DNA of 64,000 nt from Myxococcales bacterium (lineage in GTDB: Bacteria > Myxococcota > Myxococcia > Myxococcales > UBA5297). The position numbers and the translations under genes are program-made. Positions 24,069-27,519 of this stretch are shown piece after piece (the first letter of the stretch is position 1; every line of letters begins with the position of its first letter). The notes beneath the pieces were generated by a model. That model searched no databases and was not told the DNA's origin. It worked only from the letters and a program-made list of their open reading frames with translations. The stretch is taken from the NCBI GenBank assembly GCA_050288705.1, contig JBNKEI010000093.1, positions 1,460-65,459 on the forward strand. The letters are read 5' to 3'.

Positions 24069-25457
24069 ATGGTCAGTCCAGCCCATAGCCACCGCAATAA
24101 TCATACTCATCACCCCGAAAACCCCGAGAACCTCCTCAAACATCGAAATATTTCCGAGGAGCCACAGTGGACATCTATACCGGCATGGCAGGATCTGGAG
24201 AGTACAGTTTTTAACAATCCTCGTTGGCAAATGCGCAATAGCGTGATGAATCCTGAACAGATTCAAGATCTTTTAGCTGACCAGGTCGACCATGGCTTCA
24301 TTGAAGACCTTCTCGATGGATACCGCCGAGCACCAATGGTAATGAGACTAACCCCCTACGTACTGTCTCTCATCGACTGGCGTTCGCCCTACACCGACCC
24401 TATCCGCCGCCAATTTTTACCTCTCGGCTCCGAGTGGGAACCCGACCATCCTATGTGCACTCTAGATGCCTTGGCGGAACAAAAAGATTCCAAAGCTCCC
24501 GGACTCACTCATCGTTATCCGGACAAGGTGCTACTACTGTCATTGGACGTATGCCCGGTATATTGCCGCTATTGCACCCGGTCGTATTCGATCGGTTCCG
24601 ACGCCGAAGGAGTAGAAAAAATCAATTTTAAGCCCCACCGTGAGCGTTTGCAGCAGGCTTTTGAATATATTCGCTTTACTCCAACGGTCGAGGACGTGGT
24701 GGTTAGTGGTGGCGACGTAAGTATGTTGCCCGGCAATCAGTTAAAAATAATTGGCGAAGAGCTGCTGTCTATTCCCCACGTACGACGTATTCGTTTTGCT
24801 ACCAAGGCGCTAGCAGTCGTGCCCCAAAAAATTTCCGGCGACGAAGCTTGGCTTGACGCTCTCACTTCGGTTGCAGAACGCGGACGCCGCCAAGGTGTGC
24901 ATGTATGCGTGCACACCCATTTCAATCATCCAGAGGAAATCACCTACGTCACGAAGCAAGCCTGTGACACGCTATTCCAGCGGGCAATAACCGTACGCAA
25001 CCAAAGCGTGCTATTGGCTGGCGTCAATGACAACATTGAGACAATGACCACCTTGGTACAAAAACTATCTTATATCAATGTCCAGCCGTATTACGTTTAC
25101 ATCCATGACCTGGTACCCGGAGTCGAATGTCTGCGTACTAGCCTGGCTGACGCGGTCGAATTAGAGAAGAACCTGCGAGGCTCCACTGCCGGATTTATGA
25201 CGCCCACCTTTGTTTGCGATGCTCCTGGAGGAGGAGGCAAGCGTGATCTCCATAGTTTCGAGCTATACAACGAAGACAAGGGGATTGCCATTTATCGAAG
25301 CCCAGTAGTCGACCCCAACCGCGCATACTATTACTTCGATCCTTTGCGGAGTGTCGAACCAGCGGTTCGCATGGCTTGGCAGTCACCGACCGAAAGACAG
25401 AACATTATTGACAATACTCTGCGCCGGGCAGGAATGAATGTCGAGGAGGCCAAATGA
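24069..25457 (+). CDS. ablA: Lysine 2,3-aminomutase (KamA/AblA-type radical SAM enzyme)
   Basis: ORF 23799-25457 trimmed to ATG 24069 (AGGA 8 nt upstream). Motifs WQMRNSV, GLTHRYPDKVLLL, radical-SAM CPVYCRYCTRS and SGGDVSML. The stop overlaps the ablB start (ATGA at 25454-25457). Confidence 0.85.
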   Translation: MVSPAHSHRNNHTHHPENPENLLKHRNISEEPQWTSIPAWQDLESTVFNNPRWQMRNSVMNPEQIQDLLADQVDHGFIEDLLDGYRRAPMVMRLTPYVLSLIDWRSPYTDPIRRQFLPLGSEWEPDHPMCTLDALAEQKDSKAPGLTHRYPDKVLLLSLDVCPVYCRYCTRSYSIGSDAEGVEKINFKPHRERLQQAFEYIRFTPTVEDVVVSGGDVSMLPGNQLKIIGEELLSIPHVRRIRFATKALAVVPQKISGDEAWLDALTSVAERGRRQGVHVCVHTHFNHPEEITYVTKQACDTLFQRAITVRNQSVLLAGVNDNIETMTTLVQKLSYINVQPYYVYIHDLVPGVECLRTSLADAVELEKNLRGSTAGFMTPTFVCDAPGGGGKRDLHSFELYNEDKGIAIYRSPVVDPNRAYYYFDPLRSVEPAVRMAWQSPTERQNIIDNTLRRAGMNVEEAK

Positions 25458-26341
25458 ACAGCCCCGCTTGCTGTCTAATGGCGCCAGACAATCCACGCCC
25501 CCGCGGAAAAATGCTTGCCATAGAACTGCCCGATCGCACCAAAATCGAGGCCTTCAACGACCTTTACTCCGACCGCATTCGCTATGACCATCCAGTTACT
25601 CCAGATGGTCAGGCTCTAGCAAACGCTTTGATTTCTGCTGCAAAACAGGAAGGACGGGGAAGAGTTGTCTTACTTGCCGATGCCCGCCTACGCGCCGGTT
25701 GCGAGTCTGCTGGGTTAATTCATGAGGCCACCATTCCCGGGTTCTATAATGGTCAAAGTCATTGCGCAGTAATGGGAAAAGCAATTGATCCTCATCGGGC
25801 TGGGTCGGCAACTCCCGCGGAAGTTACCAAAGTCGACGACCTAGTTTCCGCAAAAACCGAACCTGTATCATCCAAACGTGCACCGGTTGCAACCGAGCGC
25901 GCAACAGTGCAAGACGCTGCCTCCATTGCTGCTCTTATCAATAGAACCTTCACTTTCTACCCGACTCCCAGCGGCGTTCCGGAATATATTGCCACCCAAA
26001 TTGAAGACGGCATTCCCTTCAGAGTAGTGCGCAAAAACAGCCAAGTAGTCGCCTGCGCTAGTGCCGACCTGGTACGTGGTGCGCAAACTGCCGAGCTAAC
26101 CGATTGTGCAACCCACCCCTCTTACCGAGGCCATGGTTATATGCAAGCTATTCTAGCGGACCTGATGGATGACTTGCGAGCCATGAACTATCCGACAGTG
26201 TTTACACTTGCCAGAGCATGTCAGGCTGGAGTGAACATTGGATTCAAGCGACTGGGATTTTTATTTCGAGGTCGAATGAAGCAGTCGTGCCGCATAGGCG
26301 ACAGCATTGAAGATATCAATGTCTGGAGCCGTGCTTTGTAA
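25454..26341 (+). CDS. ablB: Beta-lysine N6-acetyltransferase (AblB-type GNAT)
   Basis: The C-terminal GNAT region matches the remembered AblB family pattern (TFTFYPTP, AELTDCATHPSYRGHGYM, FTLARA..GVNIGFKRLGF, NVWSRAL). The gene is coupled to the upstream aminomutase gene. Confidence 0.78.
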   Translation: MNSPACCLMAPDNPRPRGKMLAIELPDRTKIEAFNDLYSDRIRYDHPVTPDGQALANALISAAKQEGRGRVVLLADARLRAGCESAGLIHEATIPGFYNGQSHCAVMGKAIDPHRAGSATPAEVTKVDDLVSAKTEPVSSKRAPVATERATVQDAASIAALINRTFTFYPTPSGVPEYIATQIEDGIPFRVVRKNSQVVACASADLVRGAQTAELTDCATHPSYRGHGYMQAILADLMDDLRAMNYPTVFTLARACQAGVNIGFKRLGFLFRGRMKQSCRIGDSIEDINVWSRAL

Positions 26342-26358
26342 TTGTTTTTGGGATCAAT

Positions 26359-27519
26359 TTGACATACCGAACAAAACCTTATGAATGGATTCAGCAAGAT
26401 CGAAATTCCATCCAAAGCCTAGAACAACTGACCCAATTTCTTGAATTTCCACCCAAGGATTGGGACAGTATTGTCAAAGCTTGTAAGAAATTTCGATTCA
26501 AAATTACTCCTTACTATCTCGACTTACTTGATCGCAAAGACCCCAATTGTCCAATACGCAAAATGATTATTCCTAATGGAAGAGAAACTATAATTCTTCC
26601 CAGCGAGTTGAGCGATCCCATCGGAGACAGCAATCAGGAACTTTGCAACCAACCCGTTGACGCGCTTACTCATCGCTACCCTGACCGCGTACTTCTCTAT
26701 CCAACCTTTATGTGTGGCTCCTATTGCCGATACTGCTTTCGTAGACGATTAGTAGGCAAAGCAGAACATACACCCTCGGAAAAACAGCTTGCTACCGCTT
26801 TTGAATACATTAAGCATCATCAGAAAATACGTGAAGTTATTCTGACGGGTGGAGATCCTTTGATGCTCTCTGACCGGCGTCTGGAATCCATTCTTTCCAA
26901 GCTTCGCCATATTTCCCATATTAGAGTGTTGCGCATACATACTCGTATGCCTGTTTTTAATCCTTTTCGAATTACCCAAAGACTGGCCAAAGTATTAAAA
27001 CAATTCGTACCTCTTTGGGTGGTAACTCATTTCAATCATCCGCGCGAAGTCACCGAAACTGCACGAATCCATCTCGAACGACTAATCAACCGGGGAATCC
27101 CGGTGATCAATCAAAGTGTGCTTTTGAAAGGAGTCAACAATAATCCAGAAACCTTAAGAGAACTAGGCTGGAAACTAATTGAAGCCCGCATAAAACCGTA
27201 CTATTTACACCATCTTGATCGCGCCCAGGGGCTTTCTCACTTCCGGGTTGGCGTCCGCCAGGGAATTAGACTACTTAGAGAATTAAGAGGAACCATTCCC
27301 GGATATGCGGTTCCCGACTACGTGCTAGATGTTCCCAAGGGGCATGGCAAAGTTCCCTTGCAGTATCATTACGTGAACACCGACCGCAACAATAGAATCT
27401 ATTTGGAAACTCCCCAGGGCAATTACCTAGCGTATGCCGACGAAGACTGCGAGGATACTCCGCCTTCCGCGCAAACTCCGGAAATTCATCCATTGGAGAT
27501 ATACCCCAAACGAGCCTAA
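26359..27519 (+). CDS. Second KamA-family radical SAM aminomutase paralog (EpmB/AblA-like)
   Basis: LTHRYPDRVLLYPTFMCGSYCRYCFRRR, LTGGDPLML and HFNHPREV. The only in-frame start near the 5' end is TTG 26359. Confidence 0.85.
   Translation: MTYRTKPYEWIQQDRNSIQSLEQLTQFLEFPPKDWDSIVKACKKFRFKITPYYLDLLDRKDPNCPIRKMIIPNGRETIILPSELSDPIGDSNQELCNQPVDALTHRYPDRVLLYPTFMCGSYCRYCFRRRLVGKAEHTPSEKQLATAFEYIKHHQKIREVILTGGDPLMLSDRRLESILSKLRHISHIRVLRIHTRMPVFNPFRITQRLAKVLKQFVPLWVVTHFNHPREVTETARIHLERLINRGIPVINQSVLLKGVNNNPETLRELGWKLIEARIKPYYLHHLDRAQGLSHFRVGVRQGIRLLRELRGTIPGYAVPDYVLDVPKGHGKVPLQYHYVNTDRNNRIYLETPQGNYLAYADEDCEDTPPSAQTPEIHPLEIYPKRA

Follow-up and report, generated by a model that had tools for sequence, protein, structure and literature searches.

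A putative N-acetyl-β-lysine operon with a second KamA-family aminomutase in a Myxococcales bacterium

Nε-acetyl-β-lysine is commonly regarded as a solute of methanogens, and the route to it through the lysine 2,3-aminomutase AblA and the acetyltransferase AblB is established in methanogens. Bacterial counterparts have been recorded: kamA and ablB are reported to be widely distributed in bacteria (PMC11337218), ablAB is annotated in Pelobacter (PMC3543383), and overexpression of yodP-kamA led to Nε-acetyl-β-lysine in Bacillus subtilis (Müller 2011, as cited in PMC9049628). We analysed a stretch of 64,000 nucleotides from a Myxococcales bacterium (assembly GCA_050288705.1, contig JBNKEI010000093.1; the whole stretch is referred to as the window), in which three intact open reading frames (ORFs) occupy 24069-27519 on the + strand, in agreement with the preliminary description of this DNA. 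In order, they encode a KamA-family aminomutase (K1), an AblB-like GNAT acetyltransferase and a second KamA-family aminomutase (K2). The locus raises the question of what such an operon makes, and what a second aminomutase would contribute to it.

On balance, and with confidence only somewhat better than even, we favour the view that the operon converts L-lysine into N-acetyl-β-lysine or a closely similar N-acetyl-β-amino acid, and that K2 is a second lysine 2,3-aminomutase. In this scheme K1 would shift the α-amino group of lysine to C3 in a radical S-adenosylmethionine (radical-SAM) and pyridoxal phosphate (PLP)-dependent reaction, giving β-lysine. The coupled GNAT would then acetylate β-lysine with acetyl-CoA, presumably at N6 as in AblB/YodP, to give a zwitterionic compatible solute. 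K2, as an auxiliary isozyme from an older lineage, would feed β-lysine into the same acetylation step.

The K1 aminomutase and its coupled acetyltransferase

A lysine 2,3-aminomutase-type gene coupled by ATGA to an AblB-type GNAT had been described at this locus, and the junctions bear this out. K1 starts with an ATG that has AAGGA upstream, and the GNAT ATG lies inside the K1 stop codon (AAATGAAC), giving an ATGA overlap with a GAGGAGG Shine-Dalgarno sequence upstream. K2 is, as described, shorter and carries both a TTG start and the motif CGSYCRYCFRR. This TTG is the first possible start codon past an in-frame stop, and the N-terminus that it gives is consistent with the short forms of the K2 clade; its distance from the GNAT stop codon measures 17 nt, rather than the 18 nt previously stated. 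Such a start codon, preceded 6 nt upstream by no more than a weak GGGA as ribosome-binding site, suggests lower expression of K2. No terminator-like site was found in the K1/GNAT or the GNAT/K2 junction, and the three genes are presumably co-transcribed. Promoter-like and terminator-like matches in the region, including a sigma-70-like match in the leader, are at chance level. The GC contents of the GNAT (0.524, z = +2.0) and K1 (0.510, z = +1.5) are the top two among the window's 40 genes, whereas that of K2 (0.449, z = -0.8) is typical of the window, which is weakly consistent with separate histories.

Family membership was judged by the NCBIfam curated cut-offs on whole-protein scores. The three proteins match their families with expectation (E) values of 1.5e-83, 3e-56 and 2.1e-113, far beyond chance, and as controls Bacillus velezensis KamA, Rhizobium AblA_like_2 and Escherichia coli EpmB scored 628.2 (TIGR03820), 561.7 (TIGR03822) and 533.9 (TIGR03821) respectively. 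The sole model passed by K1 is the generic KamA model TIGR00238 (224 bits against 199). On the AblA model TIGR03820 it reaches 280.9 bits against a cut-off of 525.4, with other members of its clade at 242-263 bits, and its scores on the models for EpmB (178.5), glutamate 2,3-aminomutase (225.5) and arginine 2,3-aminomutase (215.4) also lie below the cut-offs. The earlier assignment of K1 as ablA is therefore not upheld: a protein that scores 281 against 525 and belongs to a large clade of its own is not a canonical AblA.

K1 aligns to the lysine 2,3-aminomutase (LAM) of Clostridium subterminale (2A5H) with an E value of 1.1e-70, and the equivalents of R134, D293, D330 and K337 are conserved. 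We take Arg134, Asp293 and Asp330 of 2A5H to be substrate ligands and Lys337 to be the PLP-binding lysine. The cluster motif CPVYCRYC lies at 24552-24575, the key residues being C162, C166, C169, R171, D347 (25107), D384 (25218) and the PLP-lysine Lys391 (25239), and K1 also retains the LAM-type YYxY (Tyr290) and the DAPGGGGK loop. Both K1 and K2 keep the CxxxCxxC and S/TGGD motifs together with Arg134, Asp293, Asp330 and Lys337 (2A5H numbering), and these catalytic and lysine-ligand positions are invariant across both clades. In particular, the two aspartates that bind the lysine ε-amino group, which had been singled out for inspection, are retained in K1 (D347, D384) and in K2 (D287, D324). 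Conservation of the ligands in both enzymes suggests that the substrate is lysine, or failing that some other basic amino acid, and argues against β-glutamate. Cysteines of the Zn site were dropped as a discriminator because Bacillus KamA also lacks them. Proteins of the K1 clade are extended at the N-terminus and share a conserved C-terminal tail; in K1 itself, residues 1 to ~23 (24069-24140) are His-rich (MVSPAHSHRNNHTHHPENPEN...) and not conserved, conservation in the clade beginning at about residue 24.

Relatives of K1 were sought by scanning species-representative genomes with K1-specific peptide patterns, which gave at least 589 relatives, of which the best 80 were kept. The clade comprises hundreds of species from phyla that include Myxococcota, Eremiobacterota, Latescibacterota, Acidobacteriota, Gemmatimonadota, Bdellovibrionota, Planctomycetota and Verrucomicrobiota. 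The nearest genome match in the scan is 61% identical to K1, and a public protein collection holds a protein identical to it (462 aa, P0001). An AblB-like GNAT lies directly 3' only in the closest relatives, at 57-64% identity (L001, L008, L010, L013), and a K1 relative followed by the same GNAT was also seen in metagenome and look-up loci (L091, L092, L111, L118, L135, L139). The usual layout in these K1-GNAT loci is marR-K1-GNAT, often followed by an SSF-family Na+/solute symporter. In one further locus (L020) a K1-clade gene adjoins a gene for a GNAT above the AblB cut-off (274.9 against 205.1), and the SSF transporter is present as well. Furthermore, kdd, encoding L-erythro-3,5-diaminohexanoate dehydrogenase (237.9 bits against 200), lies inside the fetched flank in 19 of the 80 K1-like loci and immediately precedes the K1-like gene in 17 of these. 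No operon partner common to the whole clade was found among the 80 loci, only lineage-specific kdd, GNAT and SSF genes. Association both with a β-lysine acetyltransferase and with an enzyme of lysine fermentation fits a genuine lysine 2,3-aminomutase, and from its sequence K1 is probably such an enzyme. Approximately 10 K1-GNAT loci extend at least 1.3 kb downstream, and none of them has K2 or any other second KamA, nor does any fetched locus contain two KamA genes; the view that two aminomutases around one acetyltransferase are unusual was thus well founded. Separately, the kdd-K1-type pairs (L040, 6913-9350, where the two genes overlap by 4 nt, and 18 more genome loci, mostly Eremiobacterota/Vulcanimicrobiota) may constitute a short lysine/β-lysine catabolic pair; no β-lysine 5,6-aminomutase was recognised among the gene calls adjoining them.

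The GNAT scores 190.8 bits on the AblB model TIGR03827, a near miss of the 205.1 cut-off; B. velezensis AblB (303.1) and the L020 GNAT served as controls. Its residues 35-295 align to positions 6-266 of the 266 in the model, so that the AblB match noted earlier holds but is not restricted to the C-terminal half. Outright assignment as AblB does not hold, since the GNAT falls 14 bits below the cut-off, as does nearly the whole of its clade (one of 36 members is at about the cut-off). Against the B. velezensis AblB/YodP orthologue, the GNAT is 28% identical over 269 aa, full length (E 2e-31), and homologues at 52-60% identity are common, under the Joint Genome Institute (JGI) name 'putative beta-lysine N-acetyltransferase'. 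The acetyl-CoA motif YRGHGY lies within 26117-26149, and R225-G226-x-G228 is invariant in the clade. An AlphaFold2 (AF2) model (predicted local distance difference test, pLDDT, 94.8) comprises an α/β domain at the N-terminus and, over the C-terminal 160 aa, a GNAT domain that resembles solved small-molecule N-acetyltransferases; a fold search with the model returned generic single-domain GNATs only, and we know of no solved AblB structure. The GNAT thus has the full-length two-domain AblB architecture with its acetyl-CoA motif, and it is encoded next to an aminomutase on either side, overlapping K1 and preceding K2. As judged from sequence, it is a member of a sister subfamily of AblB.

Other members of the GNAT clade have different partners. 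KamA is present in only about one quarter of the GNAT-clade metagenome loci with enough upstream flank, and an HDAC-family deacetylase is found near the GNAT in 13 of 38 GNAT-clade loci, mostly immediately adjoining it. KamA-linked and deacetylase-linked members are intermixed in the GNAT tree. Pairs of this kind, as in L102 (6001-7868) and L090 (2564-4505), where the deacetylase matches PF00850 with 237 bits, and in L096, L100, L103, L104, L107, L109, L110, L115 and L120, suggest an acetylation/deacetylation pair for the solute.

Identity and origin of the second aminomutase

K2 is 34% identical to K1 and aligns to 2A5H with an E value of 3.8e-94. Its cluster motif CGSYCRYC lies at 26713-26736, and the key residues are C119, C123, C126, R128, D287 (27217), D324 (27328) and the PLP-lysine Lys331 (27349). 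K2 falls below the cut-offs for AblA (TIGR03820, 379.2 against 525.4; other members of its clade score 364-375 bits), AblA_like_2 (TIGR03822, 358.7 against 396.25), EpmB (TIGR03821, 275.0 against 369.3), glutamate 2,3-aminomutase (TIGR04368, 350.0 against 650) and arginine 2,3-aminomutase (TIGR04468, 342.9 against 600). In glutamate 2,3-aminomutase the two lysine-binding aspartates are replaced by Lys/Asn. Because K2 keeps both aspartates, the earlier suggestion that it supplies β-glutamate is unlikely. It is not a recent redundant copy either, as had also been considered, being only distantly related to K1 and belonging to another type of cassette.

A neighbour-joining (NJ) tree (373 columns, 100 bootstraps) was built with one solved LAM, B. 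velezensis ablA, Rhizobium AblA_like_2 and E. coli epmB as references. K1 and its relatives lie on a separate long branch, and all other sequences group apart from them at 91%. Among the latter, the canonical LAM clade (86%) consists of 2A5H, Bacillus KamA and a group from Verrucomicrobia. Closest to the K2 clade (82%) are relatives from Kiritimatiellia and Lentisphaeria, with which it groups at 80%, and this assemblage then joins AblA_like_2 and EpmB at 71%. Phylogenetic placement, the check proposed at the outset, therefore puts K1 in a clade of its own, and K2 near AblA_like_2/EpmB but also in its own clade.

Consistent with this grouping, K2 has His200, Val228 and His290 (in YYLHHLD) and the non-GGGG PLP loop DVPKGHGK, all common to E. 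coli EpmB and Rhizobium AblA_like_2. K2 might accordingly be an enzyme of the EpmB/AblA_like_2 type whose (R)-β-lysine serves to modify elongation factor P (EF-P) by β-lysylation, and which stands beside the solute cassette by chance; the R-β-lysine attached to EF-P is a product of EpmB (PMC5885033), and the TIGR03822 score of K2 (359) is not far under 396. True members of the two families, however, score 534 and 562. E. coli epmB adjoins efp, and Rhizobium AblA_like_2 belongs to an efp-genX-ablA_like_2 operon, but neither efp nor epmA/genX was found in the 64-kb window or in any fetched K1, K2 or GNAT locus. Moreover, the partner of K2-clade genes is a short GNAT, followed in two loci by an SSF transporter, and K2 itself lies immediately behind the AblB-like GNAT with no terminator between them. 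An EF-P role for K2 is thus unlikely, and we accord this explanation a low probability. Of the earlier proposal of an EpmB-like K2, the signature residues and the 71% grouping stand, while the family cut-offs and the genomic context do not support it.

The K2 clade is small, with ~60 clusters at 50% identity or more. In four of the five relatives examined, the K2-type KamA gene overlaps a gene for a GNAT of 145-159 aa (Table 1). In L007 and L126 an SSF Na+/solute symporter gene lies downstream, and in L004 and L126 a small HTH_17 gene lies upstream. The best NCBIfam match of the short GNAT is RimI at ~35 bits, which is generic; it was considered as an AblB homologue and rejected, only the generic GNAT motif being in common. 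The combination of KamA and short GNAT, with or without the SSF gene, appears to be a so far undescribed cassette of aminomutase and acetyltransferase genes that differs from ablAB. The SSF proteins after these cassettes are 43-69% identical to those after the K1+AblB-like cassettes, and no curated transporter equivalog fits them. The presence of the same SSF subfamily behind both cassette types suggests that the two deal with one solute or with similar ones. K2 has apparently originated from this different gene cassette: it would have been recruited from a KamA, short GNAT and SSF module and have arrived without an acetyltransferase of its own. Its most likely role is that of a second source of β-lysine for the AblB-like GNAT.

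It is conceivable that K2 instead acts on arginine or ornithine, or gives the opposite β-lysine enantiomer, and that the operon then yields two β-amino-acid products. The low identity to K1, the affiliation with an uncharacterised clade that has its own dedicated short GNAT, the signature residues common to the R-β-lysine-forming lineage and the arginine 2,3-aminomutase score of 343 bits could all be read in this way. The equivalents of Arg134, Asp293 and Asp330 are invariant in K2, as in lysine enzymes, and K2 is far from both the arginine (343 against 600) and the glutamate (350 against 650) models; together with the shared SSF subfamily, this makes such a difference in product unlikely, though it retains some weight. 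A more specific version, to which we give slightly less credence, is that K1, with Tyr290 and the GGGG loop, makes (S)-β-lysine and K2, with His200 and His290, makes (R)-β-lysine or another product, so that one GNAT would give rise to two acetylated solutes; the K2, short GNAT and SSF cassette would then be a second, as yet undescribed way of making an N-acetyl-β-amino-acid osmolyte.

Finally, K2 could be a non-functional remnant of a broken KamA and short GNAT cassette. Its usual partner has gone without trace: a tblastn search of the window found no remnant of the short GNAT or the SSF gene, neither is present in the 3' region, and the small ORFs 3' of K2 have no Pfam match and include no frame-shifted continuation of the K2 tail. 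The TTG start, the weak ribosome-binding site and a C-terminus ~13-15 aa shorter than in the nearest relatives would also fit with decay. Nevertheless, the ORF runs without interruption, no clade-invariant residue has been lost, another member of the clade (P0149) ends at the same point and the composition of K2 fits that of host genes. We regard a defunct K2 as very improbable, and return to the interpretation of K2 as a second lysine 2,3-aminomutase.

Surroundings of the operon and its physiological role

The features of the operon region and the K2-type cassettes of other genomes are listed in Table 1. No Rfam family matched the 346-nt leader even at E ≤ 1, and no riboswitch or other known RNA was found in the leader or the 3' region, the latter containing one sub-threshold narK match. 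A 90-codon upstream ORF extension of K1 gave a sub-threshold match to PF06942 GlpM (E 0.027), which was discarded as a chance match. Where relatives have marR, the window has only this leader. The flanking genes are unrelated to the operon: a CheA-like Hpt-HATPase kinase gene, ribF (27990-29003, - strand, convergent with the operon), trmB and prkA-yhbH-spoVR. The last of these, a prkA - yhbH/yeaH - spoVR triad, spans 29840-34653 (+) just downstream of the operon region. Further away are a gene for a eukaryote-type Ser/Thr kinase (12778-14601) and one for a RimK-family α-L-glutamate ligase (11724-12647, - strand; TIGR00768, 229 against 143), which is apparently unrelated to the operon. A malto-oligosyltrehalose synthase gene, treY (17789-20881, + strand; TIGR02401, 935 against 499), lies 3.2 kb upstream of the operon and represents a second compatible-solute route, to trehalose; no TreZ gene was seen adjoining it.

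Table 1. Features of the operon region (window coordinates) and K2-type cassettes of other genomes (coordinates of the respective locus)
Feature	Position	Strand	Remarks
K1, KamA-family radical-SAM/PLP aminomutase, putative lysine 2,3-aminomutase	24069-25457	+	462 aa
AblB-like two-domain GNAT acetyltransferase	25454-26341	+	295 aa
K2, second KamA-family aminomutase	26359-27519	+	386 aa; other clade
Leader 5' of K1, AT-rich, non-coding	23723-24068	+	346 nt; one weak sigma-70-like match at 23741-23768
Spacer from GNAT stop to K2 TTG	26342-26358	+	17 nt; weak GGGA ribosome-binding site; read from sequence
Non-coding 3' region	27520-27989		ends at convergent ribF
K2-type KamA + short GNAT, L004 (Kiritimatiellia)	4162-5836
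K2-type KamA + short GNAT, L007	6001-9239
K2-type KamA + short GNAT, L126	4660-8300
K2-type KamA + short GNAT, L128	5001-6612

Given that acetyl-β-lysine in B. subtilis is not part of osmotic defence (PMC9049628), we considered whether the genes might serve lysine/β-lysine catabolism or some other non-osmotic role, like yodP-kamA of Bacillus, rather than the synthesis of a compatible solute. The linkage of kdd to K1-clade genes in 19 loci, and the frequent position of AblB-like proteins of the GNAT clade beside an HDAC-type deacetylase, could both be taken in favour of this. In the window, however, neither kdd nor an HDAC-type deacetylase was found when sought, and no CoA-transferase or aminotransferase gene lies near the operon, whereas catabolic-type genes adjoin Bacillus ablB-ablA. 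The closest relatives of the locus have a solute symporter instead of catabolic genes, and trehalose synthesis is represented ~3 kb away by TreY. A catabolic or otherwise non-osmotic function therefore commands only a small share of our confidence, about as much as an altered K2 substrate or enantiomer, and we continue to favour the synthesis of an N-acetyl-β-lysine-like compatible solute.

Several observations nonetheless weigh against this assignment and account for the caution with which we put it forward. We know of no characterised enzyme within the K1, K2 or GNAT clade. K1 and K2 are below every curated KamA-subfamily cut-off and the GNAT is 14 bits short of its own, which places all three clades outside the curated subfamilies. 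The EpmB-like residues of K2 (His200, His290 and the non-GGGG loop) and its 71% grouping imply that it could give another product, for instance one of different stereochemistry. Around many GNAT-clade members there is no KamA gene within 6 kb, but an adjoining HDAC-type deacetylase gene instead, so that the substrate may not be the same across that clade. No gene for a transporter, deacetylase, MarR or salt-related regulator adjoins the operon in the window. In addition, the homologous yodP-kamA genes of B. subtilis are without osmoprotective use (PMC9049628). Overall, what had been observed at the locus was correct but for two small points and the idea of an acetyl-β-lysine-type gene pair survives, whereas canonical AblA and AblB, β-glutamate and a recent gene copy find no support.

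Comparison with known systems

The wider implication is a large bacterial LAM clade (in Myxococcota, Eremiobacterota, Latescibacterota, Planctomycetota and others) that is paired with a sister AblB subfamily. Since no curated equivalog captures either the K1 clade or the sister AblB group, such proteins are annotated merely as 'KamA family' and 'GNAT family'. The pathway appears to be modular: two unrelated aminomutase lineages and two unrelated acetyltransferases occur in varying combinations with a MarR regulator, an HDAC-type deacetylase and symporters of a single Na+/solute subfamily common to both, and the operon of the window would be a hybrid of two such modules. Testing these predictions would improve the annotation of osmoadaptation genes in metagenomes and might reveal a difference in product or properties between the aminomutase lineages.

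Compared with methanogen AblA-AblB (Methanosarcina mazei; compared via NCBIfam TIGR03820/TIGR03827), the locus has the same order of an aminomutase gene and a coupled gene for a two-domain GNAT (~270-295 aa), and the same radical-SAM, PLP and lysine-binding residues. It differs in that K1 scores 281 against 525 and lies in a separate long-branch clade, in the GNAT score of 190.8 against 205.1, and in the extra aminomutase attached here. The B. subtilis-group YodP-KamA system has a GNAT-then-KamA order like that of GNAT-K2, and its GNAT is a full-length homologue of the one here; with 628 bits Bacillus KamA exceeds the AblA cut-off, and Bacillus AblB scores 303, whereas K1, K2 and the GNAT are below the cut-offs. 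Bacillus ablB-ablA is also part of a catabolic-looking operon with genes for an aminotransferase, a CoA transferase and a peptidase, and the operon in the window is without all three.

Both K1 and K2 are ~39-41% identical to C. subterminale LAM (2A5H) and keep C125, C129, C132, R134, D293, D330 and K337, while Tyr290 and the DAPGGGGK loop are kept in K1. Cys268, presumably a Zn ligand in 2A5H, is Asn in K1 and K2, and the C-terminal tails of both are divergent, with at most one Cys. With EpmB (YjeK) and AblA_like_2, K2 has in common His200, Val228, His290, a non-GGGG loop and the 71% grouping, but it misses their cut-offs (275 against 369 and 359 against 396), lacks an efp/epmA context and belongs to a clade whose partner is a short GNAT, with SSF following in two loci. 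In relation to these systems, the locus is not a new type of system but an ordinary bacterial version of a known pathway, to which a distantly related second aminomutase has been added.

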